From: Bilabrum cf. latius | Taxonomy: Eukaryota | Direction of reading: 5' to 3' | Assembly: GCA_965178125.1 (NCBI GenBank) | Contig: OZ237750.1 | Coordinates: forward strand, 372,001 to 436,000 | Length of the DNA stretch: 64,000 bases | In this document: piece after piece, positions 6,176 to 64,000 of the stretch | How the letters are laid out: each line of letters opens with the position of its first letter | Position numbering within the stretch: the first letter of the stretch is position 1 | The notes under the pieces: model-generated | The model's database searches: none | Seen by the model: only the letters and a program-made list of their open reading frames with translations | What the model was told of the DNA's origin: nothing | Translations under genes and position numbers: made by a program

Positions 6176-6439
6176 GAACTTCGATCGAAATGATCCAGTT
6201 GACGTTCGTGAAATGGCACGCAACCGCGAAAAAGTGTTGAATTCGTGTGATGCTCACTGCTTGATACAGAATGGAACCCTCACATGGTTAGGAACCTGTT
6301 GATATGTCAAAAAGTTCCACTGAAGTGGCTTCTGCCTTGCCATCGAAGGTGAAGGGTAGCTTGGACAGGCTGCTGAGATGGCAGAAGCGCCCTAGGGCTG
6401 CGGCAAGTCAACCCCTGAATACAGGGTTTTCTGAGGGTG

Positions 6440-12233: not shown

Positions 12234-15200
12234 TCAGACCTTGTCGTCATCGTCACCAAGGAGCATGTTCATGTTGGTCTCGATCGACTAGCTGGGCTCC
12301 ACCCAATCTGTGTTAACCATGAAGCTCGTAAACATCGGGATCCGGGTCACCAACCGGTCGGGCAGCAGGCTCAGCACGAACCGGTACCTCTTAGTCTGCT
12401 TTGTGAAGGAGTGCACAAACACGTAGTAGTAGCGCAGGAATGCAATCGTTACGACCACAAACACGCCCGCCATGCCAACGATCAGCGTGGTCACATACTA
12501 GTTCGCCCAGTCTTCGAACAGGCTGGCGTATAGCCTGGGCAGGTCACGGATGCCAAAGTACGGAGCAGCTGTGTACAATGGACTGACGACGTCACGGAGC
12601 CGCAGGTGCTGCACGTATATCTTAAACCCTTCGTCGATCCCATTCGGGCCGAAGAAGTACTCCTCTAGCCGCGACGAGGTCGATATGCCGGGCACGTCTT
12701 CCTCGGCACAGCCGAACACGACGCACCTGTGCAGGCGTTCCCCTTCATCTGCCATGATGTCGAGGATACCCTGGTCCCACGTCAAATTGTAGTTGTACCA
12801 CGTTTCGAGCCCTAGGTCGGGCACACCTAGTACGTCTGGAAAATTCGAATAGGAAACCACCCGTTGCGCCTTGGCAGTGAATGTGAGGTACTCGAACGAC
12901 GACCGGGTGATGGTGACCAGCCACCTGCCCATCACATCGAACTGAGAGATGATTTCAGAGGCGCGCAGGTACATGAGTGGCAGCAAGATGGCGATCACGG
13001 TGGTTGCCACCCACATGATGCCACTGGCCCCGAGCACGCGCCACAAGTCGAACCGAAACCACCAGTCCTCCTCGTGCAGCTACCGAATCTCATCCACAAG
13101 CAGCAACAACGGATCCATGTCAGCTCGCTTGTTCCCCTCGACTGCTGCCGCACCGCTCGAGCCTGTACGATTGACCCGCCCAGATGAGGAGGCTGCGTTG
13201 CCATCACCATCCCACAAGTCGCTCGTGCCGGAGGACGGTAGCCTCCCAGCAGCCGCACCGGCACTCGGGGACGGATTGCCCGCTGCCCTCTTTTGCTCGC
13301 CGAAATCGCCCTCGGGACCACCTTGAGAAGGGAGGGAGGTGCCAACAGCGGCAGCACCGGCTCCTGCGCTGCCCGTCGCAACCGTCCCGATGGCACCTGA
13401 CATGGTCGACTGCCGCCCGGGCGGCCCATCATGGCGCAAGGCACCGTGCATGATTCCGTCAGGCTCAGCCATGGAGTCGTGTGCGGTTCCAAAACCCGCC
13501 ACATCCTCGATGATGAACTCCATCCGCTCTTTGAGTCGCTCGATGGCCGCGTGCATGATGCTGCCAGGCCGCGCAGGCTGCGACCCGAAGATGTGCTTCA
13601 GCTTTGACGTGTCGGCGTTCTAGATCTGCGACATGGAGTCTTCGTGCTTTCCTGCCAGTTCCCTGACATCTTCGAAAGAGTCTTGTCTGTGCATCTCTCC
13701 CGCTTCCGTGATACCGTCTGCCTGCGCACCATCAAGGCGATCAAGAACAGCCTCGAAGGCAGACAGCGGGACAGCATCCAGCAAATAGTAGCCCGCCGCG
13801 TGCTCCATGTGAGCTGCCCGCAGTCCCCAATACAGAAAGAATGGCAGCGAGCTGAACACACCTACGAGGAGAACGCTTGTCATACTCAGCACCACGAGAA
13901 AGGTAGTATCGCTCGACCGCACCGCCGCTTCGTACACGTCTGTTGAACGACTCAGTGCGTGACCAACACGATGCACATTGTATACCACGCCTGCCCACCC
14001 GTTGACCGCTTCGCTATACTCGGGCTACGTCATCGCTGGAACGATACACGACTTGTTGAAGTGCTGCAGCAGGGCCGCCACCTGAGTCGGAGGAGCTACA
14101 AATTCTGCGCCCACGAGCCAGTGCGTCTCCTGGGAGATCACCGTGCCCCAGCCCGTGCCGGGGTAAGACTAGGTCACGTTGGCTGTCGCCCGTCGTATGT
14201 CGTAGATGATTTTTTGTGTGTAGTCATCTGTTAGCAGATCCCGTCCGAAAGCCACCAGCGAGAACTCTCCGGTCGTTTCGTTGATAGAGGCCGTCAGGTC
14301 GTCCACTCGAATACTCTCATCTCTCGTGAGACTCGTCGCTAGGTCACCTGAGGGGCACCCTGTAGGAAACTGGTTCGAAAACTCCCTGTAAGTGTTGAGG
14401 TTCTCGTGGGGCTCGTCGCAGAACACGAGCCTGTGCTGGATGAAGGACAGCTCGCCGATCGCCTCTGCCGGGTCGAGCAGGAACGCCGGCGGGATGCCTT
14501 CAATCCCAGGGCTGTTCCCGCAGTCCTCTAGCCTCTCCACGTGGGCCAAATAGGAGCTGAGCAGCCAGAAGACCTGCTCTCTCCTGCCGCTCGATGCGAC
14601 CTTTTGCAGGTTGCGCTGGAGCTTGGACAGCTCAGTGACGCTGATCGTGAACGGGATGCACAGCGTGGCAAGGACAACCGCATAAAGCGCGCACAGCACG
14701 CAACGCATGCGTCGGATCCCTGGGAACTCCCGCGGCCGCTCAGCTTCGCTGTCGCATCCCTTGCTCTTCTTGCATTGCTTGCTGCGGGTAGCCCCCTTGG
14801 TTGCCTCCGCCACTTCATGGTACGTTCTCTTCTTCTTATTTTTCTTCTTCCGTTCCCTGCGTCCTCTATCGCTCGTGAAGGAACTTCTCCGGGACCCTCC
14901 CCGACCCAGGTGCCTCTTGCTCTTGCCCTTGCCACCCGGCCCCATCTGACCGTGGTCCTCACCGGACCGGTCACTGCCAATGGAAGAGTCCGCATCGAAG
15001 CCGCTCGTTGACACGGACCGGGCGGACAGCTTGATGCCTCCGAAAGACACCCGACTGGCACGCGGCTGCTCATTTAAAACGCTCGGACCCGGGGGTTTCA
15101 AAGCAGCGCTACTAGGCGGCGTATCTCCTTGCTTGCGCTCAACGTCTCCGTCATCTGCAGACTCCACAGGTAGCCGAGGCACGACGTGCACTCCTGATTC

Positions 15201-18200
15201 CTACGCGCTTTCTCTCGCGTCAAGCTCAGCCTTCTCGGCCTTGGACTCGCTGCCACCATGCGGGTGTGTACCCCCATGGACCAACATCGGCGGAGCGGGC
15301 AAGGGCGTTCGTTCGCCCGGGGCGGGAGACTCGAGCTCGTGCAGGATGGCCGATGCCTCGCCCGCGCTGACGTTCCTATTCCTGAAGCTGCTCTCCTCGT
15401 CCTAATTTGGGATGGGCTCTTGCACCTCGCCAGGTAGTGCGGTGCTCTCAGCAAGGGCCGCGCCACCAGAGCTGGCTTCACCAATGCCGTCACGGTTTTC
15501 CCGCCGTGCGCTGTACTATCCAAGCCCCATCGCAAGTTCTTCCCGCTCGCTTGGCTGTCGCTGGACCTTGGGCCTCCTGCTGCCGCTAGCCGGTGAGAGA
15601 TCGCTCCCGGGCTTGCGAATGCGAGGAGGTTTCTCTACTGCTGACCCAGGCTGTCGTTGAGCAGACTGGCCGGGTGCATCGCGCATGGGCATGCCCAGGG
15701 CTCTTGCATGAATCCTCTCGCCAATGCCTGCTTTCGCTGTTCCAGCTTGGCCCGCCTCAGTCCCGCCAGTCTGCCGCATTGGCGGGTTGCTGTCACCCAA
15801 GTTATCCCCGCCGGCCTCGCTGCCTTCCTGCGACCCAGCAGAGGCTGCTGCTGCGCTATCCACTGAGGCTGCTTCCCCAGAGCGACCGGACCCATCTGCA
15901 GCACTGCTGTATCCCTGCATGCCCGGCTTGGAGGGGCCAACTGAGCGCTTGTAGGCACCGTTTGCACCCGGCACGCTAGCACCGGTTGCTCCTTTGTCTT
16001 TGCCCCCCCTCGTCCCAACCTGGGTCGATAGAGCAGCTGCTCGACTAGCAGCCGCCTCCTCTTCCACCGCATCGGCCAGCTCGAGGTAGTTCTGGGACTC
16101 CTCTTCCATGCCGTGCACCTGCAGCAGAAATAGGCTGTAGCTCCTGAGCACCTGCGTGCTGTAGCTGTGCTTCTGAAGGAGTGCCTCAAATGTCCTGCTG
16201 GCCTGCTCCTCGGCTGCCCCGATGCGACCCACGGCCTCTTGTACCTTGTTCGAGCTGGGGGAGTTCGTGGCAATCATCATCTGCAGAAAGTTCCTCATCT
16301 CGGCGAGCGTCTTGCGATGGAACTACTGCGCGCTCCTCAGCGATTTGGACAGGTCAAGGTATCTCACGGTGCCGACACCCTCGGCCAGCTGCTGCCTCCT
16401 CCTCTCGAACAGGTACCGGAACAGGCAATACCTCAAGTCCATGGAGGATATCTTGATTGCTGCGGCGGCCGACATGCGGATGGGCAGCGCCTGCCCGAAG
16501 AAGTGGTGCGTGTTGAGGATGGACAGCCAGAACCGGCCAGACTCCCCCAGGTCTTTGCTTGCCTTGGTGTACAGCCACTGCATGACCATCACCCTTTTCT
16601 CGAAGGAGACCCATCGCCTCTTGGAGCGTTTGGCCATCGCCCTGATCGTCTCAGTTTGGTCTCGACCCTCCTCCTGCCCGGCACCACCACCGAACTCGTC
16701 GTCATCGTCCGCATCGCCGCTGTCGAGCGAGTCATCGCCGTGGAACGTTACCCCCAGGAGGGTCAAGATAGAAAAAGCAGCGACATCGTGGTGATCGCTC
16801 CGCTGCAGCCCCACGATCCCAGAATCCGTCCTCCTCATCACGTGCCTTACCAGTATGTCCACGTCTGTCTCGCCCTGGTCCAAACCTAGCCGTTTCACCA
16901 GCGCGTCTTCCGCCCTGCCGTCACCACTAGTAATGATCTGAAGGACCTTGGAGGAGGATGGCATCCTCGATATCACCAGGTGCCAGCGCTTGAAGGCTAG
17001 GTAGGTGCCCAGGTATGCAGCCGGACCTAGGCCAAGGAGCAGGACGTCGCCTGCGATGTCCAGTGACACGCCGCCCACCCGCATGACTTCCACGACGGTG
17101 GTCCACAAAAACACAGTGAATGCGGCAGCCCTAAATTGATTCGATGCCAGCGAGTTATAGGGGAAGAAGTACAGGAGCTGGTAGAGCAGCAGCGACGCCA
17201 CGATGGGCTTCCCGATCGAAATGAGGTTCCCTGCCACCGGCTGCAGCTGCTGCAGCAGCAGCAGGGCCAGCTTGCAGACCAGTGCAACCAGCTCTGACCT
17301 CCCGTGGGTCATGCCGAAGGCCCCTTCGACGTCCACCGCGATGGTTGCGGTGGTGAAGGACACCAGCCCGAAGACCACGATGAGGAGCCAAGCGCCCACG
17401 AAGATGCCGTAGTCAATCTCCCCTTGCCCGGGGAAGGCAGCCAGCACCATGGTGCCATCATCCAGCACGTTTGGTATCCCAAAGATGGTGAGCAGCTCCA
17501 CGAGTGGCATATACAGGAACGAAATCAACGAGCACACGACGATGCGGAGAAAGTCTAACGCTCGGCTGGGAGAGCTGTTTGTGTACGATAGCCGGAATGC
17601 GACATACGCCAGAGTTACTAATACAAGCAGAATCATGCTGGTTGCCACCCAGAATTCGATCACACGTCCGTCGTAGGTTTTGCTCTGGAACACCGTTGAG
17701 ACAAGCAGGCTTGCCCGCTGCAGGACGTACACAATGCTATTCGTCGGCCACTAGAACGCAGGGGAGGTGAACGAAATAGCCAGCAACTGCAGAGGCTCCT
17801 GCGTCCAAATACTAGGTAAGGAAATCTCCAGTACTGTAGTATGCTCAGTTTGGGTGACGGCAGTCGCCAGAAAAACTCCGGAAACGCCGAGCATCTGGAG
17901 CGAAGATGCCCTCTCTCACCACTAAGAAAGCAAGAGCCAAGAGATAATCTTTGACGGAATTCTATGACATCATGCTGTATATCACCAGGAACAAGCCTGC
18001 GTAGATGCCACGGCACACAGTGTTTCGAGAGCAACGCGAAACGTATCTCACAACATTGCACGATACAACAAGCGCGCTAGACAGGACTACGGACTTACCA
18101 CGTTCTATTGATGCAACTTGGCCGCTGCCCAAAGCTCTCTAGAAGGTAGATTCCCCTGATCCCGTTGTAAATACGCTGCCACCGCCTCTAGTTCGCATTC

Positions 18201-18725: not shown

Positions 18726-19457
18726 TCAGCACCCGCACCCGCCCGCTCCAACGTCAACATCATCCTTGGGTGGCTTTGGCATGACCCTGAGGTCGATCAA
18801 GTTCTGGTCTGCCACGGCGGCGTCGGCCTCCTGAGAAGGCAGCGCGTGCGCCACCCTCCGGAACAGAGCGGTGATGTTGCTGCCTTGCATTGCACTTGTC
18901 TCAATAAATAGCGTTCCGAGCTCCCTTGCCTTCGCCTACCCTTCCTCGGTTCGCACTTTTCGTCGGTCGGTCGCGTCGGTCTTGTTGCCGACGAGCATGA
19001 GGAGCACGTCCTCTCGAAGCCCTCTTACATCGTCGACCCATTGCGGCACGTTCAAGAAACTCGCTCTATTCGTGACATCGTAGACAACAATACATACCTA
19101 ACAATCTCTAATGTAGCTAGGTATCAATGACCTAAACCTCTCCTGTCCAGCAGAGTCCCAAATCTGCAACCTGACCGTGCTATCGGACAAGTACAGCGTC
19201 TTGCTTTTGAAATCGATCCCTATTGTCGTCTTGTACCTATCCACAAAAGTTCCGTGTATAAAGTGATGGATTATAGAAGTCTTGCCGACGCCACTGTCTC
19301 CGACAAACACAACCTTGTGCTTGGTGAGAGGTGCTTCAGATGGCAAGCCTATGTCTTCTCCGCCACCTCCCCCTAGAGACTCCCCTGCAGGTACTTCAGC
19401 GGTTGCGGCGGTGCCGTTGCTGCCGTCCCTTCCATCACCTCTTGCGACGCCAGCCAT
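18726..19457 (-). CDS. RAB6: Rab6-like small GTPase
   Basis: [38 protein letters not shown]. Past TAG 19098-19100 it continues [10 protein letters not shown]...VGNKTD...EEG*AKARELG (TAG 18936-18938)...ETSA and ends in the CGC prenylation motif, then TGA. Confidence 0.9.
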
Positions 19458-19959
19458 AACGAAAGGCGCTAATAGGTGGCAGACAAACTGTCAAATTCGA
19501 CCCAAAGTTCGCAATAGGCCAGTATATCTCCCTGATTAAGTGTCTTAATCAGTTCAACGCAGCTGCGCTAGTTCGAGAATCGCAGTACTTTTGGATATTG
19601 ACCTCATCCTCCCGTTGGCTTTCCTCGGGCTTTGGGAACGTTCCATCGCCACAAGCCGCCAGTCTCTCCTGGGTGTTGTCATGCAACGAGTCGGGGGCTC
19701 GTTTTTGTGCGTAATGGCTCATTTGTTGATTTAGATTCGTGAGTGGTGCTGCAAGATCTGACTATACTGCTGCGGTAATCTCGATTTCGCTGAAGACCTG
19801 CACTGCATCCAGTGCATGATCCCCCTGTGACAAGACCACAGCCCCAACCCACGGTCCTGCGACCCTTCCTACTATAAGAACCTACAATCCAAGATGAGCC
19901 CTGCGGCTACCACTGAAAATGTCTCTGTGGCGGCCGCCGAGCTGAGCTGTCGACCCAGC

Positions 19960-25543: not shown

Positions 25544-28500
25544 ATGTCTGGATGGCTCACGGAGTCAACCCTGCGACCGCGAAAGCACCGGCCAGTAATT
25601 GCTGATGTGAAGGCTGCGGTGAGCAAATTGCACAGCGTCTACTCGGCCTGGCGATGTTTGTGTGCGTGGAAGCCCAACATGGATTGCAAAATCTTCATTA
25701 TCCGGATCGCAGGCAGGCAACCTGCGTAGCATGGTAGACGACGCCCGGAGTAAGCGGGGGAAAAAAAGATCTTGGAAACCAATCGCTGATCAGCTTGCAG
25801 CACAGGCTGGTCCACCAAAGAAGCAGTTTCGTGCAGAGGACAAATCAAAACTGATCTCTGAGCCGGGCGGGCTTGAGTCGGGCGAACGTAACGCAGAAAG
25901 GCAATAGGAAAATGCCGCGGAGATGTCGTACGAAGCGTACCTGGCGTAGCTGGCATCTGGCGGGGAGTCATCAAAGAGCAAGAAAGGAAAGCGAAAACAT
26001 AAGCGCGACAAAAAATCAAAACCACTTCGCGGAGTCTCATCCGCACGCTCGCGCAAGTCGAGAATAGAGGGCAAGTCCAGCGCAGCAGCGACCAAGGCGG
26101 AAGGTAGTAGCAGTCCCCATGGCGGACGGCCCGGGAGTGATGCGATTGCAGCTGCATAGGGCACAACAATAGACCTCAAGGCACCACCGTTGCCAAGCAG
26201 CAGCCCATCGGGAGATTTGGCCGCGAAGGAGCAGGAGATCGACGGCGGCGGGGGGAGAAGCAAGAGCATGAGGTCAGTGGTGGATGAGTTCGGCAGGCGT
26301 TCCAAGGAGAAGCTACCGACGGTGTCCGAAGAGTACCTGAAATTCAAAGCGGAGCAAGCGAAAGAGGCTGCTCGATCTGGAAGGTTGTGACATGATGGCA
26401 TCAAGTATGGGGGTCGTAAGTGGGGTGTGGTTAGTGGCGAAGTGTGCTGATGCATTTTGTGCCATGGCCTGAGGCGATGCACCGGGCGGGCATAAGTGAG
26501 GTCGGCCTCTGTAACATGCAATGATGCCTTGACTCGTTATCGGCCGAGCAGACCCGATGCCATCAGTGCCACAGTGATGAGCACCGGCGGTGGTTGCAAC
26601 CGCCGGTAAATTCTGGCGCTCGACTCCGCATTGCACCCTGATGCTGATGCAATTCCACTAACTTCTACGAATGGACACTTTAGAGCTGTAGTGTCGATTG
26701 CGCGACTGCAAGACCCAGAGTGGGGTGGATGCAGTGGCAGCAGCCTTCGGCAGGACGGCATTGCCGAACCGCGCTGGACTTTGTTCGATTTATTCGATAG
26801 GATCCTGACATAGTGACTCGAATCGAGTATCATGTAGCTGTTGAGTTAGAGAAGCGAAAATTCGAGGAAGCGAACGCGCGAGCCGGTGGCTTTTTGGGTC
26901 GATTCATGGCAGCTAATGCCGCGGCAGCAAAGATACTGTCCGAGGCTGTAGCCAGAGGAGAAGCAACCGAAGTTGCGAAGGCATTGGATGAGATCGAGAA
27001 GTCAAGACCACCGACAAGAGAGGAGTTTACGAACGTGATTGGCGACGGTGAGGACGCCTTGCTCCGATTCGATCATGTCCTCGCGAGGTATCCCCACTCG
27101 CGGCATAGACAATCGGTGCTTGCTTCCATTTCTGGGGGGCGAGATGCGTGGTCGCAGAATAGCCCGCGCGAGGAGGAGCGGGCCACGACAGCGACGGACA
27201 TGAAGCGCAAGTTTGAGACTCCGCTGTCTCGCGCTCGCACGCTGACACGAGACATGCTTCAACGAACGGCAACCAGCCAGGGATTATTCGCATCAAAGCT
27301 GTCATCATCAGCTAGAAATGGACCTTTAATATTTTGGTCTGATGTCAGCTCTAGCAAGGGCATGAACGCTCTCGCGATCGCAGCCGTGGCAAACAACCTC
27401 CAGCTCGTGGAGCGGCTGCTGCGGCTGGGCGCCAGCCCCAACGCAGCATGCGCCTCAAGTCGCGACGCAGTCACAATCGCGGCAGAGAACGGATTCATGC
27501 TACCGTTGCGAGCAATGATTGTGTCGGGCAAGGCAGACCTCGGCCACAAGCAACTCCTCAATCAGCTCCGCGACACGGACGAGCTGCTCGCCAAGCCTGT
27601 CGGTTTCCTTACCGTCAATACGGCCCTCCCCCTCGTTGCCGCGTCCAAAGCAGGGCACATCAATGCGGTCAAGGCTTTGCTGCAGGCGGTCCGGGAAGAG
27701 GCAGTTGCGACCACTTCCGGCCCCGCCCTGCACCGAGGCAGCATCGCCAGGCAGCACCACTGGTCCACACGCGTGCTCCACTGGTTCCACGCCAGGGACT
27801 CCTCCGGGCAAACGGCGATACAAGCCGCAGCAAGCGATAAAATGCTCTCGCTACTTCAATCGTTCGAAAAGAAACTCATGGGGTCCGTGCATCGTGTTGC
27901 GGCTGACAGGGCGGGCCAGCAGGTGGTTCGCTGCGGTCAATGCGGAGTCAGTTTGCGTCGCGAGGAGATGGACCGTCATTTGGCCTACCTTTGCGCGTTC
28001 GCCCCGCTGCGGGATCGGCTGCCAATAGGTGCACCAAAGCACGTAAAGCTGCCCGGGTTGTCTCTGGGCGAGCGGCTGCTCAGGCTGAAGAGGCCTCGGC
28101 TGTATCATGCTCGTGTCACAGGCATCGAGGTGCCAGAACGCGGCACCCTGCAGTCGCTCGAAGTTACGCATGCATAGAAGGGCAAACCTGGACAGCACCA
28201 TAACGTAAAGGTGCACTACTGTGACATTTTCTAGCCTGCCCTGCTGACTGGGGCAGGCAAATCAAGTGCTGTCAGTGTATCCAACCAACCAAGCCATCAG
28301 GAATCTGCCGGAAAACTAGAGGATGGCAGGAGATTTTCTTCCTTTGAGCTTTCCTTTGGAGGTGGGCTAGCCCGAAAATTGTCCCAGCGTTAGGCTATCA
28401 GTTTCGTGGCGGTGACCCAGGGCCGCCTTGAGGGGGACGGCACGTCCACGGGGCACGTGATGGACGAGCGGGTGGCTGCCATCGACCTGGCTGGGGCCAA

Positions 28501-31500
28501 GCTGAGCGCGAGCAGCCTAGTCAGAAGAAGCGAATCAATGTCAGGATAGAAGTTACCAGGAGATCCCGGCGAGCGGGTTGCATCCAGCCGAAGAACTGAG
28601 GTCTTCCCTAGCCCGGCAGAATACGTAAGCAAGTCCGCATCATGTCCGTTGGGCTGCGGCATGGTGCTGAGTCAGACACACATAGGCGAGCATGTCCAAC
28701 ACCGCTGCCCTTTACGTACTAGGCTGTGCCCAGACGGGTGCGGGGAGCGAATCGAAGCAAGGATGGCGATGGAGCACTCGGCCATATGCTCGCATCGCGT
28801 GATCGCATGCGGCTGCGGTGCAACTGTAAGGCAGTCTACCCTCACAACGCACCTCGCCATCGAGTGTCCAAGGGCTGAAATTCAGTGCTTGAACGCGTGT
28901 GGTCTCACGATCCGGCGGGATGCGATGCAGGAGCACTTGCAGATGACCTGCCGTCGAAGGGTGCAGCCGTGCCCGCAAGGATGCGACGAGCTCGTGATTG
29001 CTTGCCACCTTGACAGGCACCTGGCCGACGAATGCAAAGAAAATCTCATCGCGTGTCCGCACGGCTGTGCCATGATGCTGCACCGGAGGGAGCTTGCTAG
29101 GCACTCGCTGCACTGCTCCGAGGCGAAACGAAGGTGCCCTCACGGCTGCGGCTCGATCGTGATGCACGGCGACCAGAAGCTGCACGATTTGGATTGCCCT
29201 GCAATAAAGAGGGAATGCCCTATGGGCTGCGGTCTCGTGCTGATGAATCGCGATTTGGATAGACACGCGAAATCCAGTTGTCCTCGGCGGATGGTGAGCT
29301 GCAGGTTACATTGCGGAGCAACAGTTCGGCTGTGCGACACCCAAGCGCATGAGTCACAGGACTGCTTCAATGGGTCAATTCAGTGCAGTGAATGCGGTCA
29401 ATTGCTTCTCCGACGGCTTGTAGAGAGCCATGCGGCCGTTTGCGATGCAAGGCAGCTGGCATGCGGCCACGGCGGAGCCCGCTGCACTCGAAGCATACAA
29501 TCGTGGCTGTCGAAACAAGGCCGAGGCAAGGAACCTCGACTGCATCGTTGCATCGAGCATGGCGCCTCCCCGTTCACTTAGGCCGCAGTGCTCGGGGATG
29601 CAACGCTGCTGGCCCACATGATCGCCCTGGTGGACCCAGCCGAGCTGGACCTCGACCACGGCCTCGGAAAGTCACCCCTTGTCCGAGCAGCCGAGCTCGG
29701 TCTTGTCCCTGCGATTCACGCGCTCATCGACGCAGGCGCAGATCCTAACGCAGAGACAGCCAAAGGCAGGTGGCCCCTGGGCGCAGCGGCAGAGGCCGGG
29801 CAGCCGCTGGCCGTGAGGGCGCTGCTTGACCGGGGCGCCAAGGCGTCCAACAGGAACCGACTGCGCCGAAATGCGCTGCAGTATGCAGCCGCTGGTTCCG
29901 AGTCGTTTGAGATTCTTCGGCACGAGCTCAAGCAGAACGTACTGCTGGGGCAGTTATTCCGCAGCGTGGCACTGGGTGATGCACTGGCTCTTGCCAGAGC
30001 ACTAGGGGGTGACACCCTGCAGCGGTGGACGCAGGGCATGATAACCGGTGTGAGCGAACATCTCGCAAACAGTGGTAGCTCGCTAGCACTAGAGGGTCCG
30101 CGACAGTAGTTCCCAGCAGTGATCAGGCGCCTGCCGAAGCGGGCCTACGCTGGGGTGTTCCACGTGCAGGACCACCTACAGGCACAGGCCCAGCAAAGTG
30201 GCTAGCTTGTGAAGAAACTGCAGAGAGATATTCTGCGAATCCAGTGCGACGCGCTGCGGAAGAAATTCAGCCAGAGAGGAGGAAAAACAAAAAAATTTGC
30301 CGACAAGAAGACTCTAAAGGGCGCTGCGTTAACTCCTGCTCCTGCATCTGCAGCCCCTGGCGCAAGCAAAGAGTCTGCCATCCTGTCGCTTCCACCCGAG
30401 GGTCCGCAAGAGGGGGGCATGGACCCAACTGCTGCTGGAGGCAAGTATCCAATCGTACGGAAGTCTCTGGCTGCTCCACGTCGAACAATGGCATTCATCC
30501 GACGCCAGCAGAGGGAAACCCAGGCAAAGCTATCCGCAGCTCAGGACGCGAGCGAAGAAGCCTTGACTGTTCGCGACACGCAGAGGGTACTATTCCGGAA
30601 AACGGAATGCGGGCACAGCCTCATATCGTTTGCTGCCGCTGTTGGTGACGTGCAGTGCCTTGCGGTGCTGCTTCTTGCAGGCGGTACGTGTGGTATCCAG
30701 CCGGCCTGCTACGAGGCAGCAGCCAGGTTGGTGCAGGCTGCGTGGAGGCGGCGCAGAATTGCCGTGCCTCGGGCCATAAAACAGGCCATGGCCCCCGATG
30801 CTAAATGGAAGCAGTTCTAGCTGGAGCTGGCCGGGATTCTGTCCCTCAGGCGCTAGTTGAATGCTTGGAGGATGGTCTTGGCACAGCAGCCGCTTCCGTT
30901 GCACCAGGCGATCTTCAGCGGGAACGTGCAGGCCGCCATGCTGCTGGTGCACTGCGGATTCCCAGTGACGCTGCGATCGTACATGATGCCACTGCGCGCC
31001 CCACCTCAGGTTCTGGGTGGCTCAGGTGTCCTCACCGTCAAGGTGAGGGTGCCGGCCCTTCAGGCGGACGGGACGCTTTCGGAGAGGGACGACCCTACAT
31101 CGGAATTCTTTGAGGAAGATGCCGATGCAGCGCCGGTCGTTCGCAAGGAAGGTACCTCAATGCTATCTCGTGGGCTGTCAATAGCAGAGATAGCTTTCGC
31201 TGGCTGCAGGCTGCTGTGCCGTAAGAGCTTCGTGGAAGGGGTGGGCTGGACCTCTCGCAATGCGCACGTGGACGCGCTTGACGCCTGCCAGCATATCCTA
31301 CGGAGCAGAGCTCTCCGCATGTCCAGATTTCATGCGTCAAGGCAGCAAGTGCTTACACTCGCAGCCAAAAAGCAGGCACGAGAGACAGAGGGGATTGCCA
31401 TGGAGAGGTGTGCACTAGCTCGCGATACCCGTGGCATCATCGACTGCTTGGAAAGGGGCGCTAGCCCCGGGTACACACTTCGAAATGGATACACGGCCAT

Positions 31501-32341
31501 GTGCATGGCGGCGCGATACAGGTGCATCCTACGAGACAAGTCAAGTGGGCTGAAGAAACCGGCGGTGGTGTACATTTCCGATCGATTCTCTACCTCTGCT
31601 GCTGCGCAGGCGTCGCACGCCAGTGTACTGGGTGTGGGTCCATTGCACATTGCAGCATTTCATGGGTCGGTGCAGTCTATCCGTGACCTGCTGCTGCAAT
31701 GTCATGTGCCACCAGATCACAGGGCCAGGGCACCGTAGCGAGGGTACGAGCAGCTGGCAGAGACCTAGTTCAAGATCGGTGCGGACCAGATCAATGGCAC
31801 AACCGCGCTTGCATTCGCTTGCATGAACGGCCAGCGCGCAGCTGTGCGCGAGCTATTGCTGGCGGGCGCCAGCCTCTTTGACGTGAATGGCGCTGGAGAC
31901 AGCGCCGTGCATGTATGCGAGAGGCACGGCTCTCTTCGATGCCTTTAGCTGCTTCGGGAGGCAGAGCTGGCGGCAGGGCCTGGTGCGGGACGCCGGCTGC
32001 CTGCGATAGCGGACGCAGCAGTGTCTTCGGCAATGCATGATCCAGGCACGGCTGCGGCAGAGTCGAAGGGTGTAAGCACGGGAGGATCCCGCCTCGCAGT
32101 GCACCGGTGCAGCTGCGGTGCGACTGTCACGCGCCTGGAAGCAGCAGCGCACGACCGTTCGTGCCAGGTCTCTGAAATCGAGTGCACAGCGTGCAAGCAG
32201 GCTGTAATGCGAGGCAACTATAGAAAGCATCAGTTGAATGATTGTCCCGAGCGACTCGTCGGGTGTCCCAAGGGCTGCAGGGCGGCACTGAGGGCCAAGG
32301 ACGTTGCGAGGCACCTGGAGAACAAAGAGTGCATCAAGTGA
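25544..32341 (+). CDS. Giant ankyrin-repeat / TRAF-type zinc-finger / IQ-motif protein (~2100 aa)
   Basis: Ankyrin repeats (GMNALAIAAV...LLRLGASPN, GKSPLVRAAELG, GPLHIAAFHG), a tandem C-x3-C...H-x3/4-C array at ~28640-29480 and IQ-like AARLVQAAWRRRR. Continuous frame 26813-32341 through TAGs only; TGA stop. Intron 25619-25712; a second intron at ~26385-26680 is less certain. Confidence 0.8.
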
Positions 32342-37453: not shown

Positions 37454-40400
37454 ATGGCGGAAGCTGGGGGGGAGTCTCCAATGACTCCGGTGGAGAGATA
37501 TAAGGTCCGCAAGAAGATTGGCAGCGGGAGCTTTGGCTCGGTGTACATCGCTGACGACCAGCTAGAGAAGGGCGTTGTAGTCGTCATTAAGAAAGTTGAC
37601 CTGAATGGCCTGGATGAAAAAGATAGACAGCAGGCGATGGCCGAAGCCGTCATGTTGAAGGTTCTCAAGCACCACAACATCGTTGGCTTTCGTTCCGTAT
37701 TCATGCAAGATGACACGCTGAACATCGTAATGGAGTTTTGTGATGCGGGCGACTTGGCCAGTCATATTAAGAAGCGAAAGAAAGCGGACGAACCGTTCAC
37801 CGAGACCGAGGTGATGGACTACTTCGCGCAGATGGCTTTGGCCGTTTTCTACATGCATTCATAGAACGTGCTGCACAGGGACCTGAAGACCCAAAATATA
37901 TTCTTGACGAGACGTTCGGTGGTGAAGATTGGAGACTTCGGCATCGCCAAGGTGCTGGACACGACCGCCGAGCAGGCCAAGACTGTGCTGGGCACCCCGT
38001 ACTTCATGAGCCCGGAGCTAACGCAAGGCGTGCCCTATGGTAAGAAAAAATCTAGCGGACATTTACTGCATTTACTGTATTTTGCATGGGCTGGGTCTTG
38101 CCCCTGCATATCCTGCGAGGACAGCACTGCTTCCCTTTGAAGTGATACATCGAATCGATATCCGTTGCTGTGCTCAATGCTATTACTAGTGCGCAGGACG
38201 TGCCTCTGACATCTGGGCACTCGGCTGCATTCTCTTCGAGCTTTGCTCGCTCTAGCACGCATTTCAATCCGTGAGGCTGTTTGGTACGGCGCTGGTGCTA
38301 GGAGTTCTGTTATTGTGTGTGCTACCACCTGCGCTCGTTCTTCCAGGCCTGTCAGTCGGTTGGAGTGCAAAGCGACTCACTAGCAGCTGAATGCATGCGG
38401 CTGAACGCCTGCACTGCGACTGCCTATGCCAACGCCTTCTAGCGCTTGCATCATCACTCTCACTCACTCCAAGCTGCGTTTCTCACACTCCGCGGGTGCA
38501 CCGCCCATTTCCCCTTCCCGCCTCCCCCCCCTTTTGCAATTGCCTCCGCAGGACAACTTGCTTGGACTAGTGTTCAAAATCGTGTCGCAAGACGTGCCCC
38601 CAGTTCCTGATAGATACAGTGCTGATGTGCGCTAGCTCGTTGCCGATCTCCTTGTCAAAGACCAAGAGAAGCGACCGTCAGCCAGGCAGATTCTCTCGAG
38701 GCCGTGCGTGCGAGCGGCACTTAAGAGGCTGGCGGACAGCAGCGGCGCTGTTGGTGGAAAGATCGCTCGGCCTAGGCTAGACACAACGAAGGGGAGACAG
38801 GCGTACCAGTGAGAAAAATGCGGTGGCGTGGCATCAGCGCTGTGGCGACCCTGTTTGCACTGGATCGCCGGTTGTTGCCATCTTCTTGCATTTGTCCTGA
38901 ACAGCACACCCATTGCCTCATTGGTATGATGCTCATTCGCGCGTTCGCAGCAAGGAGCTAGAGAGGGAGAGACAGCGGGAGGCCATGTCGCAGGCAGCGG
39001 CGCATGCGCAGAGGGAGCGCAGGCAGCGGGGGCAGACTGGGGCGAGTCCGTTCGCCACCTCGCAGGATAACCCGCTGGCTAGCCCCGGGCGGTAGCGGGG
39101 CAGGGTCAGTGGCAAGAGCCAGGAGGGCGCGCACGACGAGGGTCGGGATAGCTTCGCGTCGACTCGAGTGGTCGACCAGGAGACGGGCGAGGTTGCAACA
39201 GTGTCTGCCCGCGGCTCGAGGCCGAACTCGGCCGACAGCTCTGCACCCTCCATGTATGGGGCCTCGGTGATCTCTAGGACCGGTGACCTGATCGAGGGCC
39301 TGCCCATGGGTCCCGACGCCGGGATGCATGGTGGCATTGGCGGTGGCCGGGGGCACGCGGGCGGAGAGGAGAACACTCGGGGCGGTATAGGCGCGGGTGT
39401 GCGGAGGCAGGCGAGGCCCAAGACCTCCGGCGGTGGTCTTTCGCACCACCGCAGATCTGAGTACGACGACGCCCGTCGGGAGGCGGCTGCCGACCACCTC
39501 GCAGCAACCAGCGCGGCCCAGCCTGGCAGGGCTGGCGCCCATGGTGCAGCTGTGGATCGTCCCATACAGGCCAAGGGTTACTACAGCATCGGCGATGCCG
39601 GCCAGGCAAGCCGCCCGGATGAGGACAGACCCATTCGGAGCAAGGGCTTCTACGACACGAGCGGGGCGGGCCTTGGGACAGGCAGTCGTGGCGACGGCCG
39701 AATGGGCGTGTCCTTCGAGTTTGCGGACGATGCCGCGGATGGGTCGCGTGACTTGGAGGCATCGCTAGAAGCAGCGCCTGACGGGGATTCGGGTGCGGAT
39801 GCAAGCGACGACTTTGGGCAGGTTGGATCCAAGGGGTTCAACCACGAGATTTATGGGAGCTCGTCTGGGCCTGCAGCTGCTGGCGCTGGCGAAGGCAAGC
39901 AAGACGACAGCGGCAATGAGGATGAGGAGGAGGAGGATGACTATGACGATTACGAGGACGACGACTTTGAGGACGACGACGATGATTCTGATGCCGGGGC
40001 TGACCCGCAGGCTTCGAGCATGAGGGCGGCAGCAGGGGCCGCCCTGGGTTCGGACGGTGACGCGACTCCAACTGCCGTAAGGGCGGAAGCTGCCGCGAGA
40101 CACGAGCAGAGGAAGGCCTACGTGAAATCGAGGGACAGGCACGACCTTGGCGCCGTGCAGCAAGGGGCTGCGGCCGCACTGCGCGAGATGGATGAGGCCG
40201 AGAAGCGAGGGGAAGATTGGTCGGAAGCCAGGGACGATGGGGCTGTCGGTGGCGGCGCACGTGGTGGGGCTGTCGACGAGGAGGGGTACGGCCTGGGCCA
40301 CGCACCTCAGGCTGGGAGTGCCGCGAGACCTGCGGCGGCGGCTCGCAAGCCCAGGTAGAGTGTGGCCGTGTAGGTCCGCACTCAGGTGGATCGGATGAAA

Positions 40401-41123
40401 GAGGCCGCCGACGAGGCCGAGAAGGAGAGCATGCGGGTGCTAGGCCCTGCCTTGTACAGGTCTGTCAAGCAGGCCATCGAGGAGCTGCTTGCAGATGGAG
40501 ATGGCGTGGTGGAGGACGAGGACATCAGGCAGCTGGTCGGAGATTCGAAGGAGTGCATCAAAGCCGGGCGGGACATTGCCAGTATGATCGCCCTTAGGCA
40601 GCTGTCGAGCCAGGCGGCACCTCTTGGTGGATCTACCGGTGGATCGGGCGGTGCGGGTGCTCGGGATACATCCAGATCCAGATCCAGATCGAGGTCACGC
40701 TCTCGCTCTCACTCGTCAAAGCCGGGAGGTGCAAGCCACCCGCACCCGAACCCGAAATACGCCTCGGGATACACGCCCGCTGCAGGCAGCCGGCGGGGCT
40801 CGGGCACCTGGGCCGGAGCCGGTCGTCTTGGTGCTCACCGGTCTACTGGCATGGGCGCGGGGACCTCGGGTGGTGGTCAGTGGGGCGGGGCGTCGCCGAG
40901 CCGTAGGCCCGGATCTGGCGGCAGCGCGCGGAGCGGTAGCAGCAGGCCAGGTAGCTCGGGCCACCGCAGGAATAGTCGCGGCGGCGGAGTTGGTGGGATG
41001 GTAAATGCAGGTGCAGGTGCAGGTGCAGGTGCAGGTGCAGGTGCAGGCGGTGCGGTTGGCGTGGTGCGGAGGTCAGACGCGGGAGGCAGGATGCGGCCGC
41101 ATGTGAGGCGAAAGCTGGGTTGA
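37454..41123 (+). CDS. NIMA-related (NEK) Ser/Thr protein kinase with long low-complexity tail
   Basis: IGSGSFG, VIKK, MEFCDAGDL, HS*NVLHRDLKTQNIF, DFG, GTPYFMSPE, SDIWALGCILFELCSL*HAF and KRPS. Introns 38040-38196, 38271-38551, 38809-38950. 6 TAGs; TGA stop. Confidence 0.93.
41007..41048 (+). repeat. (GCAGGT)n microsatellite encoding Ala-Gly repeats in the NEK tail
   Basis: Six GCAGGT units followed by GCAGGC. Confidence 0.9.
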
Positions 41124-43237: not shown

Positions 43238-44992
43238 ATGATAACTGTAATGATCGTTCTAGTACAAATGTTGTCCAATCCAGCCCAAGCCCTCGATAAT
43301 GGGCTGGGACTACTGCCAAAAATGGGTTCGTTCATGTAGCACGCCTTTAACCACGTTTCGATAGATACCATGTCTTGATCATTGCAATCAAATTAATTCA
43401 ACATTTGGATGACGTTCGCAGGCTGGTCGAGTTGGAATGCTTTCGGTGAGACATCAGGGCAGTGCAAATCGTAGCAGTTGCACACCGCAAATTGATCCAG
43501 TTCTACCTCGACTACACGAGCCCTTGCAGGTTGCTCGGATGCAATGAACGAGACCAGCATCTAGATGATTGCAGATTTCATGGCATCGAGTGGTCTGCAA
43601 GCCGCAGGATATGATTTGGTTGCGCTCGACGACTGCATGGTCGCTGCAGAAAGGAATTCCTCTGGCTTTCTTGTTCCCGACCCCGACAGATTCCCATCTG
43701 GCTTCACGTCTTTGTCTAAGTATCTCACGTCTCGAGGATTTGATTTCGGGGTTTACGAAGACCGAGGCCTAAAGACCTGCGCCAAGCGGGCCGGCTCGTA
43801 CGGGCATTGGTAGCAAGACGCCACTCAATACAAGGAATGGAACGCGACGTGGTTGAAATACGATGAGTGAGTCTACATGAAGAGTGCATGCTGGAGATAC
43901 CCGCATCGCTCGCGGTCGCGGGAGGCCCACGCGGACTGGCCGGGCGGTGTAGGCATGGCATGAAGTGCAACTGCTGCTCTGATGACTGCCATTGGACTCA
44001 CTGCCTGTGCCTATGGCTGGACGCATTGCCAATTATAAGGCTGGACTCATAGGAATGCCCTTCGCCCACCTTGCAGCTGCAACGATCCGCCAGGGTACGA
44101 TTTGAACACGTACTATCTCAACGAGCAGATGGCCAAGGCGCTGAACGAGAGCGGGCACCGGATGTGGTTCTACATCAAGAACGACCTCATGCCCGGCGGG
44201 TATGCCTCCATGAGCAGAGTTTCGAACTCACACCGGATCGGCAACGACATCAAGCCGCTCCCGAGCGACACTGGAAGGACAGCAGACGCGCTTGCCCCCA
44301 TCCAGCGGTATTCCGGGCCGGGTTCCTGGAACGACGCGGACTCTCTAGAGATCGGAAGCCCCATCCCGCCGGGCCACGTAAAGTATCCCGGGCTCAGCCT
44401 GCAGGAGCAGAAGATCCAGATGCAGCTCTTCTCCATCGCAACAGTCCCGCTCATCGCTGGGTTCGACTTCAACATCACCGAGGAGCAGCTGGCCATCCTG
44501 AAGAACAAAAATTCCATTGCGATCAACCAGGACCCGCTCGCTGTGCCAGGTCAGAGGCTCCACAACACGCACAACGTGGTTGCGGAGGTCTGGGCCAAGC
44601 CGCTGGCCGATGGGTCCTTCGCTGGGTGGCTCTGGAACAGGAACCACCAGTACGAGGGCCGGACGTATTCTCTCGACCACGGCATCTGGCTCGATTTTGA
44701 GGAGCTGGGCTTCGAAGGTTCTGCCGACGTGTTCGACATCTGGCCCGACCCACCGGTTCACATGGGCAAGCATCAGGGGTTCGTGGGGAACCAGACGCTT
44801 CCTGTCGGAGATTCGATGTTCCTGAAAATCGTTCCCGTGGCTGGGGAACACGTGCTGACGGGGCAGGGGTTCTGGGGATAGCAGGCCACGAGGGCACCAC
44901 CGGGGGAAGGTCTTGGAGTTGGTGACGGCGACTGCGGCGTGCCTGAAGGGATCCATCGCAGGCGCTACTACTGGTGCGCGGAGCAGCCGTGA
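43238..44992 (+). CDS. GH27 alpha-galactosidase / alpha-N-acetylgalactosaminidase (4 exons)
   Basis: Signal peptide, then LDNGLGLLPKMGWSSWNAF, LDDC, PDPDRFPSG, LKYD nucleophile, RIGNDI acid/base, WNDADSL and INQDPL. Introns 43326-43421, 43446-43529, 43867-44076. TAGs at 43562, 43811, 44879. Confidence 0.93.
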
Positions 44993-45169
44993 GAAACAGC
45001 ATATGGAAGGGTGATTGACTGTTGACAGAGCATGCAGAATGTTCGTAGGCGTGCATGGCATCACCACAGGCAAGGATGGCAGGCAGGCGGCTTTCGATGG
45101 CCCCAAATTGCATTCGGAGCCAGAAGTCCGCAAATTTGTCGAACGATTATACGCATTTAAGCTCTAACC

Positions 45170-47165
45170 ATGGCGGCATTTGAAGCATCTACTTAGCGCA
45201 TGCACTGGTTGTTTGATGTTATTGCTCTTCGTGAGGGTGATTGCTCGCCAGCATCACGCTGTTTTGTAATTTACTCCACACTTTGAATATCGGCCTAGAC
45301 TTCCAACATCGCAGGGGTCAAGAGATTAGCAAGGTACAAGCGGGCTCAAAATGCTTTGCGTGTGAGTTATGAAGTGTCGTTTAGCTACATTTAGCAGATG
45401 TTCCAGCAGCAAATTTTTGGCAGCAGCTGGTACATGGATGCCATCTCATTTCTAGCAGGCTGAGATAGCATACACGAAAAAGCACGGTAATAGCGACAGC
45501 CCATCGAGCAAAAAGGCGAGGATTGAGTCAACTGGACAATCTGAATCGGTAGAGGTGGATGTGCCTTCCATCGATACCGAGCAAGCTGCTATCCGCGCCG
45601 CCGAGATTCGCATAAATAATATTTGCACACGATGCCGCTTTAGGCGAGATATCAATGCAACTGCGGTTGTGTTTATGAAACGATTCTTCTTGATTGCGTC
45701 GCCATTGGAGTACCCACCCATGGAAATGGTCGGGTCGTGCATCTTTCTCGCGATCAAGACGGATGCCTGTCCTAACACCGAGGTGCAGCCATTTCACAAG
45801 CGCCTGGTGCAGGCCATGGGGGTGCGAGAGGACGAGCCTTCGAAGCTAGAAATGCACTTGCTGATGGCGCTGCAGTTCATGCTCACGGCGCACCACCCGT
45901 TCGACCACGTGATCGGGATCATCGACATGGCCGTGGAGGACATGCTTGCAAAGGAGGCGGGTGAAGGGGAAGAAAGAGAAAAAAGAGCGTCTGCACCCGT
46001 CGAATCGAAAGTTCCAAGCGCAGAGTCGGATGCAGGACCGGCCTCTAGCGCCAGTGCTGGATCGAAGAGGGGTGCTGAGGATGGTGCCCCAGCAGCCGAC
46101 CTAGCCGAGGCCGAAGCGGTCGCAAGTGCGAGACGGATCGCAGGAATGAATGCCGCCTTGGAGAACCTCTAGCAGCGTGCCTTGGATGCGTGCGACGCAG
46201 CCTACACCACCGACGCGCCCCTGCTCGTGTCCCCGGCCCAGCTGGCCCTGGCTGCCATCGCGGTGGCCGCGGCCGGCCTCGTGGATGATTCGGGCGCGTG
46301 GGCCCCGACCAGCCCCCGTGGCGGGTCAGGTGTGTCTGATGGTGTGACCAGTGCAGATAATGGCAGATCAGTATCGGCGGACGGGGCACCAAAAGCCAGC
46401 GGTACCAGCAGTAGTGCAGGTGCCGGTGATGGTTCCAGTCGAGCCGACCCTGATGCCGCTGCCACGGATTTTGCAGATGCAGGGGTATCCCCCGACGCAG
46501 TGCGCATGCTGGGTGCAGTCATCGACGGCGAGCTGGGCGGCGGAACCTTCTCTGGGCTGATCCGAGAAGCGAAAGAGGCTGCGAGTGCGGTCGGGACGGG
46601 CCGCGGGTCGGGGTGGATCGGTGCATCTATGCCGACGGGATCAGCGGGAAGTGATGAGAAAAGCGATAGGGAGGGTACGGGGAAGAGTGTCTCCGCTCGA
46701 GCAAGTGCTCTTGCTCACTCTTCGTCTTCGTCCTCGTCGTCTTCGTCCTCGTCTTCGTCCTCGTCTTCTTCGTCTTCGTCCTCGTCGGCTTCGTCTTCGT
46801 CTTCGTCTTCGGCTTCGACTGCCGTGGGCCATGGTTCCGCGGGCGATAAGCCGGAACATGTTACTACCCCTGAGGACAGAATTGCGCTCAGCAAGACGCG
46901 GTTGGCGATTCCCTTTGTGTGCTACGGGCTGGCTCGAGCAAGCAGCGAGCCGGGAGGGGACGAAGCACTTGCTTCGCTGGAGCGAGTGCGCAACCCGGCC
47001 TTCGTCGAAGGCACAGTTGCGTACGTTCGGAGAATAAGCGTAGCAGAGGGAGTAGAGCAGGCGAGACAGGAGCAGAAAGCTCGTGTCAAGGCGGCCGACA
47101 GCAGGCTGTTCGAGAGACTGGCAAAGGAGGGCGGTGCAGGGAAGAAAAACGGGTCCGAATCATGA
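45170..47165 (+). CDS. CCNH: Cyclin H (CAK/TFIIH subunit)
   Basis: N-terminus MAAFEAST*RMHWLF; cyclin box ATAVVFMKRFFL, CIFLAIK, LEMHLLMALQFMLTAHHPF; TDAPLLVSPAQLALAA. Probable introns 45231-45314 and 45362-45458. TAGs at 45194 and 46170; TGA stop. Confidence 0.9.
46719..46817 (+). repeat. TCN trinucleotide tract encoding poly-serine in cyclin H
   Basis: Alternating TCT/TCG/TCC codons giving about 30 Ser residues. Confidence 0.9.
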
Positions 47166-47469
47166 GTTCGCCTCTGGTACCAGACACATACGGGTATCTG
47201 TTGACTTGTATTAGACTCACTTTCGGTAGCTATCGACACTCTGCAGCACACGCACGCGAAATAGCGCATTTGCACGGAGCAAATTTGTAACGTGCATAAT
47301 TGACGAACAAAAATTCAGAAACTGCTGCTGTCGCGGATCGCAAGAGGCAGCGGAAAGTCTTGGCCGCGGACTGCGGGTTTGACTCTCTTGGCGGTATTCC
47401 CTGTATCTGATAAAGGTGCCGCTCCGAGGCCTGACGGAAATAGAGTCTGGTTCTAGCCCAAGCCTTGCC

Positions 47470-62300: not shown

Positions 62301-62880
62301 CAAGGCATGCTTCCACGGTCAAGGTGGGGACCAGGGTGAACGTGAATCGCTGCTTGAGCTTTACGTAGGAAGCAGTCACGAACTTGCTTTGGCTGACGGA
62401 TCCGTTGCTGAGCGTGGCCTGAACATCCGCCGAGCTGGCGAGAGAATCGATCAGGGCGCCCAGCCCGGTGCCACCGTGCGACAGAGAGATGAATCCGACA
62501 ACTTTAGGCGTTCCATGACCACCACCTACGCCGAGACGCCGCTTTACCCTCAAGTTTCTCTGTTTCTCCAGCCGCTTTTGGGCTAGCTAATTGGTTCTAG
62601 CTTGCCGGCTCGACTACGAGTTGGTTCTGCGCAGAAAGCTAGAGCCAATGTTTCAGATACAATAGCGTGAGATCCCATGCATGCACAAGAAGTGTTATGG
62701 ATGATTTGCGAAAGCTCACTTGGCCATCGCAGCATACTTTGCACCAACGATACTCCTACCGGAACTCTCCACCCTGCCTCCGCTCTTCCGGTCCAAGGCG
62801 CGCTTTGATGCATGGCCTCCCCCTTTATGTGCCTTGTTCCTCTATTTCTTTCGTCCCGAGCGGTGGTGGTGACCTGACAT
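59350..62880 (-). CDS. TSR1: Pre-rRNA-processing / 40S assembly factor TSR1
   Basis: MSGHHHRSGRKK*RNKAHKGG; intron 62627-62719; SGYLRG, HLAGIGTF, FPDEVETP, RFGKYRGLKS, VKSKDDL, RPIFSQ, KRVLLTG, FMFYNPDDVRWF, GTHGKFKC, LYKRVFPRW. 4 TAGs; TGA stop. Confidence 0.95.
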
Positions 62881-63313: not shown

Positions 63314-64000
63314 ATGGAAGGAACAAGTGATAGCAAGGATACCACAGAGCCAGTTACCAGCTCTAGCAAGTGCCCCATCACGGTGCGGCTTGGCCCAAGC
63401 AGCGCGGGCATCCCGGAGCCATCGGCAGCTGAATTAAAGCACGACAACATTTGGGTTAGGATTTCAGGCGACAAGATAGCCCCCGAAGAATTGATCAAAT
63501 TTTGCACAAGACCAAAAGCCGGCGGCATCGGCGTATTCCTGGGGACCACTCGCGATTCGTTCAAGGGCAAGAAAGTGGTCCGGCTAGAATACGAAGGCTT
63601 CTCCAAGATGGCCGCCGCCACGGGCGTCCGGCTGTGCCAGCAGGCGATGGATACTTTTAAACTATCCGCCACAGGCGTCTTTCATCGGCTCGGCAGCGTG
63701 CCTGTGACGGAGAGCAGCGTCGTGGTTGTGGCAAGCTCCGTGCATAGGCGTGAGGCGATGCAGGCGGCTGGGTGGCTCATTGACGAGGTGAAGGCGAGGC
63801 TGCCTGTGTGGAAGCTAGAGTGGTACTAGGGTGATGAAAGGGCCTGGAAAGAGAACTGCGAGTGCGCGTTCGAGGCCATGAAGCGGAGGGCCAGCGAGCG
63901 TGAGGCGGCAGGGGCAGGGGCAGGGACAGGGGCAGGGGCAGGGGCAGGGGCAGGGGCAGGGGCAGGGGCAGGGGCAGGGGCAGGGGCAGGGGCAGGTGCT
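63314..64000 (+). CDS. MOCS2B: Molybdopterin synthase catalytic (large) subunit, 3' truncated by window
   Basis: GGIGVFLGTTRD, LEYEG, HRLGSVPVTESSV, SSVHRREA, DEVKARLPVWKLEWY*GDERAWKENCE. The conserved WKEN motif lies after TAG 63827-63829. Confidence 0.93.
63908..63996 (+). repeat. (GCAGGG)n hexamer microsatellite, in frame as an Ala-Gly repeat in the MOCS2B tail
   Basis: About 15 near-perfect tandem units at the window end. Confidence 0.9.

Follow-up and report, generated by a model that had tools for sequence, protein, structure and literature searches.

A TAG at codon 9 of a cyclin H gene, translated and most probably read as glutamine, in a GC-rich, intron-bearing eukaryote

The first codons of a gene at 45170-45217 of the window, by which we mean the whole 64-kb stretch of DNA that was analysed, raise the question of whether a TAG can be translated within the N-terminus of cyclin H and, if so, which amino acid it specifies. 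Read directly, these positions are ATG GCG GCA TTT GAA GCA TCT ACT TAG CGC ATG CAC TGG TTG TTT GAT, which translate as MAAFEAST and RMHWLFD on either side of an in-frame TAG on the plus strand at 45194-45196, codon 9. The earlier note on this DNA had reported the sequence and the position of the TAG exactly as they stand; it had assigned the gene to cyclin H, placed the TAG on the third position of the S-[ST]-x motif with which that protein begins, and named the amino acid as Gln rather than Leu, Glu or Tyr. The analysis described here deals with the gene, its transcript, the meaning of TAG throughout the window and, finally, the residue.

The assignment to cyclin H held up well. The frame that runs from 45459 to the TGA at 47163-47165 has a single NCBIfam match, TIGR00569 (ccl1; E=1.7e-22), covering positions 34-165 of the 305 in the profile, and the absence of its first 33 positions implies coding exons further upstream. 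When the gene was compared with solved chains by phmmer, cyclin H (8.4e-07) and Ccl1 (8.6e-07) were the top matches, followed by weaker ones to a Mediator cyclin-like subunit (3.1e-05), cyclin C (7e-04) and cyclin K (2e-03). The TIGR00569 score of 80-83 bits (80.1-83.4) lies below the curated cut-off of 250 (250.35), with exon 3 alone submitted from a protein that has long inserts; the Pfam scores were 19-20.6 bits for Cyclin_N, where the cut-off is 23, and 25.5-27.1 bits for Cyclin_C_2, where it is 27. Judged from these similarities, positions 45170-47165 hold a three-exon cyclin H/Ccl1 gene, closer to this family than to other cyclins, and the protein is a divergent, insert-rich cyclin H. 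As in human CCNH and yeast Ccl1, the cyclins of the CDK-activating kinase, there are two cyclin folds and an N-terminal F/Y-x-x-S-[ST]-[Q/H]-x3-W-x-F; human cyclin H chains start MYHNSSQKRHWTF, and the same signature is found at the N-terminus encoded in the window. Unlike the human chain, which has 323 residues, the gene in the window has 604 codons, and its protein carries long Ala/Ser/Gly-rich inserts, a poly-Ser run and two TAG codons. Genes for the partners of cyclin H (CDK7/Kin28 and MAT1/Tfb3) were not found within the 64-kb window, and a metagenome scan for cyclin H relatives gave 592 pattern matches, none of which was confirmed.

The structure of the gene was defined by aligning Logan contigs of four sequencing runs (X1 to X4) to positions 44900-47400. 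One 1415-nt contig of X1 consists of 45171-45230, 45315-45361 and 45459-46766 with no other letters, thus skipping two GT..AG segments of 84 and 97 nt, and the second of these joints (45361 to 45459) is also present in a contig of X2. Exon 1 (45170-45230, plus strand as for all features of this gene) would comprise 20 codons and one base from the start ATG at 45170, which lies in the context AACC ATG G, and it is covered from 45171 by the X1 contig (record 2) and supported by its N-terminal motif in comparison with 149 homologues. Intron 1 (45231-45314, GTGAGG...CGCAG) is followed by a 47-nt exon 2 (45315-45361, X1 record 2 and X2 record 7) and by intron 2 (45362-45458, GTGAGT...AGCAG). Exon 3 (45459-47165), with contigs over 45459-46766 and 46739-47236, encodes the two cyclin folds and the long low-complexity inserts up to the TGA stop. 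Exons 1 and 2 add up to 108 nt, and the frame is thus kept from the ATG at 45170 into the cyclin box; on the 5' side it is bounded by an in-frame TAA (45158-45160), four codons before the ATG. A second in-frame TAG, codon 274 (46170-46172), lies within the second cyclin fold. Both TAGs are carried unchanged by the spliced contig of X1, and the cyclin H transcript includes the TAG at 45194-45196. The earlier note had considered transcripts beginning downstream of 45196; the spliced contig reaches 45171 instead.

That runs X1 to X3 are RNA is a guess, and it is the joined contigs that make X1 and X2 informative; in X4 the stretch is unspliced within a single 22.9-kb piece, and this run may be the source of the window. 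The introns find further support in a close relative of the organism, whose ORF P0002 (89% identical) reads through both of them in frames that differ from those of the window, and these frame shifts fit non-coding sequence. The spliced X1 contig stops one base inside the start ATG, and since the end of a contig does not mark where a transcript begins, the start site is one that we infer rather than one mapped by the contigs. The contig of the upstream alpha-galactosidase gene ends at 45154, leaving 16 nt before the cyclin H contig begins at 45171, a spacing that suggests that both the leader and the intergenic sequence are very short, with the reservation that contig ends are not transcript ends either. 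At the other end of the gene, the TCG/TCT-rich stretch that encodes poly-Ser (46664-46831) attracts hundreds of other contigs from all four runs, with a summed depth of about 100-1600, so that similar Ser-coding repeats must be common in these data sets.

The TAG in cyclin H is one of many. The total length of open frames of at least 150 aa in the window is 30,283 aa with the standard code and 53,694 aa when TAG is left open, versus 34,763 aa when TAA is, and the longest open frame grows from 885 to 1897 aa with TAG open. Sixteen long ORFs contain 86 in-frame TAGs in 15,422 codons, and the 25 ORFs of at least 400 aa end in TGA (22) or TAA (3). TAGs fall inside collinear alignments of Rab6, FGE, MoaE, GH27, Tsr1 and the second fold of cyclin H; no in-frame TAA was present in the genes that could be aligned end to end with homologues (Tsr1, Rab6, FGE and cyclin H). 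In the Rab6-type GTPase gene, a single exon on the minus strand (18729-19490) with TAGs at 19100 and 18938, the C-terminal Cys motif (...CGC) is directly followed by TGA. The same conclusion is reached from the relative, which is 80-95% identical: ten of its ORF fragments called with the standard code end at a position that is TAG in the window in seven cases, at a CAG of the window in two and at the end of the gene in one. TAG is thus a sense codon, and TGA a terminator, in this nuclear code; TAA may be a terminator as well. No tRNA gene and no Rfam match were obtained in the 64-kb window, and hence no tRNA(CUA) was seen within it. The G+C content of the window lies in the range 54-66%, at about 59%.

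One LRR protein, one TRAF-zinc-finger/ankyrin protein and one TmcB-like protein are encoded by three single-exon ORFs of 1638-1897 aa, at 6419-11335, 26648-32341 and, on the minus strand, 12234-17915, which contain 11-14 TAGs each; their counterparts from the relative are represented in public protein collections solely by pieces that break off at TAGs. The alpha-galactosidase (GH27) frame has a TAG at 44879-44881, close to its C-terminal end, and then reads through 36 further codons before reaching a TGA at 44990; TAG may still terminate in some contexts such as this one. Tails of (Ala-Gly)n and (Gly-Ala)n, encoded by GCNGGN-type repeats that resemble dinucleotide repeats, occur where the MoaE frame ends (63950-64000) and at 40900-41100 within the ORF at 38901-41123.

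Whether codon 9 itself is translated depends on where the cyclin H protein begins. A second ATG, at 45200, lies in the same frame, and if translation started there the TAG would belong to the 5' leader, where it would be plain leader sequence or would close an upstream ORF of 8 codons, and would stand outside cyclin H. This was examined with a library search that gave 307 matches at E<=0.001, from which 149 of the 150 listed representatives were aligned by MAFFT with the spliced product, written with X at each TAG; P0002 was left out, as it reads through the introns and is devoid of the N-terminus. The signature [FY]-x-x-S-[ST]-[QH]-x3-W-x-F near the start Met is present in the protein of the window: among the 149 homologues the column of F4 holds F in 53 and Y in 44, that of S7 holds S in 90, that of T8 T in 62 and S in 42, that of W13 W in 98, and that of F15 F in 80. 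The alignment thus confirms that the TAG is the third codon of the S-[ST]-x motif. A profile built from the homologues, with the sequence of the window left out, gave 208.7 bits to the full product with X at TAG, 197.7 bits to a product starting at the second ATG and 187.0 bits to exon 3 alone. The ten residues that precede the second ATG hence add 11.0 bits, and none of 200 shuffles of residues 2-10 reached 208.7 bits (mean 199.5, sd 1.4), which indicates that the TAG is translated.

Other features of the N-terminus agree with the longer product. Thirteen homologues begin with Met in the very column of the window's first Met, and the number of residues before the Ser column, six in the window, is 4-7 in 57 of the 98 homologues that bear the motif. 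At -3 and +4 the first ATG is flanked by A and G, respectively, and the second by G and C. In favor of the second ATG it could be said that the spliced contig, ending at 45171, covers the first one incompletely, and that the gene caller which produced P0002 began the relative's ORF at MHWLF; a standard-code caller, however, cannot pass a stop codon, and this explains its choice. Against a start at 45200 stand not only the 11 bits and the shuffles but also the fact that F4, S7 and T8, which it would leave untranslated, are on columns conserved in 97, 90 and 104 of the 149 homologues, and that other TAGs, in this gene and across the window, are demonstrably read as sense codons. Based on the profile gain, the shuffles, the Met column and the better context of the first ATG, the start was taken at 45170, and we regard this start, together with translation of the TAG, as close to certain; initiation at the second ATG is very improbable.

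The column under codon 9 was counted in the 98 homologues that have Trp four places downstream. It holds Q in 66 and H in 27; two rows have a gap, three doubtful rows have S, Y and R, respectively, and E and L do not occur. Over all 149 sequences the counts are Q 69, H 28, 39 gaps and, among the other residues listed, G, D, L and R twice each and M once. The profile agrees, with +3.6 bits for Q, +3.2 for H and +0.6 for E at codon 9 relative to X. The column is predominantly Gln, as the earlier note anticipated, so that its placing of the TAG on a conserved Gln is correct for the majority of the family, but the position is one of Gln or His and not of Gln alone. Likewise, of the two motifs that it gave, SSQKRHWTF is indeed found in solved human chains, whereas STQRAKWIF with Q, given for plants, was not confirmed, and several library N-termini of plant-like type (MADF.TSTH...) carry His in this column. 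Codon 9 is the best single argument for Gln; one column is insufficient to name the amino acid.

The chief competitor is Glu. Exon and read-through would be as described above, but cyclin H would then begin with S-T-E in this organism and with S-[ST]-[Q/H] elsewhere, and E is found in none of the 98 motif-bearing homologues. The case for Glu comes mostly from other genes. No data weigh more heavily against a simple Gln reading than the two TAG columns of Rab6: one of them is S or T in 79 of 80 homologues, and the other, at 18938, is E in 66 of 80 Rab6 loci from metagenomes (the rest being L in 7, Q in 2, A in 2, and G, D and K in one each) and in 60 of 70 distinct sequences, as well as in solved human and fly-type chains, although in the two closest Rab6 loci E gives way to G and A. 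Acidic residues are also seen opposite one TAG in the GH27 exon (E in 6f4c_B, D in human alpha-galactosidase A), the TAG of MoaE (E in 5mpo_C and 2qie_A), the first TAG of FGE (D) and the Tsr1 TAG at 62616 (E in the human chain). Gln is found opposite the second TAG of FGE in human SUMF1 and, for the Tsr1 TAG at 62589, in 9xaa_2, where the human chain has R and the yeast chain K. At codon 274 of cyclin H the three nearest homologues that cover the site have Q, the column varying over the homologues as a whole (Y28 R25 Q16 K12 H10 L9 E7). Cyclin H codons 9 and 274, FGE site 2 and Tsr1 62589 are thus of Gln type, while Rab6 18938, GH27, MoaE, FGE site 1 and Tsr1 62616 are of Glu/Asp type, in a sample of about a dozen sites, several of which were assessed on no more than two to five solved chains.

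Comparison of family scores with TAG read as Q and as E seemed at first sight to favor Gln. With the best family per gene segment, the score with Q minus that with E was +0.9 for Ras, +0.4 for FGE, +0.4, +0.2 and +0.3 for Pkinase, +1.0 for the first segment of Anp1, +1.4 for GHL15, +0.7 for TmcB, and +0.1 for both zf-TRAF and RIBIOP_C; it was zero for the second Anp1 segment, MoaE, GH28, Abhydrolase_1 and Cyclin_C_2, and negative for LRR_1 (-0.2), Melibiase_2 (-0.6) and TIGR00569 (-0.4). These Pfam and NCBIfam scores were discarded as evidence for Gln because the same bias appears at arbitrary positions: in a HMMER control at positions that are neither Q nor E, Q scored about 0.3 bit above E (147 positive versus 27 negative differences in one count, 158 versus 44 in another). 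Naive comparisons of this kind need calibration before they are used for codon inference. For MoaE, NF007959 gave 55.2-56.2 bits with Q, E, K, D, L or X at the TAG, with no discrimination among them.

Calibration was done on the organism's own codons, by taking Q minus E scores on the cyclin H and Rab6 profiles at its Gln and Glu positions. None of the 33 Glu codons exceeded +0.4 bit, and none of the 14 Gln codons fell below -0.8. The TAGs scored +3.0 and +1.0 on cyclin H, and +0.3 and -1.0 on Rab6, the last value being that of 18938 and below all 14 Gln codons. Glu would thus need two outliers, one of them extreme, while Gln would need a single marginal one, at the Rab6 column. On this scale Gln fits better, and the calibration favors it.

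The close relative can be asked the same question site by site. At positions that are TAG in the window it shows Q at 6842 and 8501 and E at 31766 and 31946, so that E stands at two of the four window TAGs at which it has a sense codon, and its own in-frame stops fall on window CAGs at 27155 and 31607. A window Q corresponds to Q in 46 and to E in 3 of 56 cases, a window E to E in 93 and to Q in 4 of 106, and TAG to Q in 2 and to E in 2; once transition bias and synonymous change are allowed for, these counts do not separate Gln from Glu. If TAG were Glu, the Q at two TAGs and the stops on two CAGs would require four replacements between Glu and Gln. Other residues were also considered for TAG. 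Leu occurs in 0/98 rows of the codon-9 column and in 0/4 sites of the relative, and Tyr in 1/98, in a doubtful row, and in 0/4; both were rejected. His would fit the cyclin H column, but it was rejected as well, the relative showing only Q and E. The statement of the earlier note that TAG is Gln rather than Leu, Glu or Tyr therefore stands with respect to Leu and Tyr; Glu remains in competition, since one column is insufficient and other TAG columns in the window are of Glu or Asp.

A code in which TAG is read as both Gln and Glu, through two competing tRNAs or a mischarged one, would serve both kinds of column, between which the TAG sites are about evenly split, and would agree with the two Q and two E of the relative. 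Q and E, however, often replace each other, the sample is of about a dozen sites, and an ambiguous codon is expected to avoid strongly conserved columns, while TAG sits on two of them. We give dual decoding only a slight chance. Glu alone is unlikely, with a share of the probability that is nonetheless appreciable, and our estimate for the amino acid is clearly on the side of Gln. It is the roughly even split between Gln-type and Glu/Asp-type columns that keeps the Glu and dual readings open; a reassignment of UAG alone outside the ciliates, to Glu or to Gln plus Glu, with UGA and perhaps UAA as stops, would be a nuclear code not known to us, and a rather improbable outcome, without being a negligible one.

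In the explanation that we prefer, the organism is a GC-rich, intron-bearing eukaryote in whose nuclear code TAG specifies an amino acid and TGA terminates translation. Initiation would be at the ATG at 45170, the ribosome would pass the TAG at 45194-45196 as codon 9, and the product would bear the cyclin H N-terminal signature F-x-x-S-T-x-x-x-x-W-x-F; the residue inserted would most probably be glutamine, and the decoding agent presumably a tRNA with anticodon CUA. For the model as a whole, that is, the first coding exon of cyclin H/Ccl1 with its TAG read through, most probably as Gln, we estimate a probability of about 0.68. The sequence, its splicing, the family, the N-terminal match, the sense TAGs of the window and termination at TGA were observed; where translation starts, which amino acid is inserted and what decodes the TAG go beyond direct observation.

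Several nuclear codes invite comparison, and the literature searched yielded cases from ciliates, trypanosomatids, Amoebophrya, fornicates and rhizarians. UAR is Gln (NCBI table 6) in many ciliates, in hexamitin diplomonads and in others, and it is Glu in peritrich ciliates. A GC-rich genome with spliceosomal GT..AG introns is unlike the ciliate and trypanosomatid cases. As in these UAR codes, a stop would have been reassigned here to Gln or Glu, the only residues that the relative shows at TAG; unlike in them, only TAG is seen as sense in the window. UAR is also reported to be Glu in Blastocrithidia (PMC12153298). Nuclear reassignment of UAG alone, with UAA kept as a stop, is described for Iotanema spirale, where UAG is Gln, and for the rhizarian exLh, where it is Leu, and the 2017 paper on them calls the two the first such cases (PMC5304391). 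The window resembles both in having in-frame TAGs in conserved genes and TGA as terminator, and Iotanema spirale in the likely meaning of UAG, Gln; it differs from exLh in that Leu is absent from the TAG sites of the relative. It is set apart from both by its O2-dependent and molybdenum-cofactor genes (FGE, MoaE) and its G+C content of about 59%, and these features, with the absence of Leu, argue that its source is neither of the two.

Reassignment of UAG alone is rare in nuclear genomes. With hundreds of sense TAGs in each megabase, a eukaryote that is GC-rich and bears introns would provide a further natural example of UAG being decoded apart from UGA. As a single marker the cyclin H codon serves well, but the identity of the amino acid needs more than one conserved column. 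Gene callers that follow the standard code cut the TAG-bearing genes at every TAG, as seen in the database fragments P0002-P0006 and P0156-P0160, and the separate decoding of UAG and UGA would bear both on gene calling and on the co-evolution of release factors and suppressor tRNAs.
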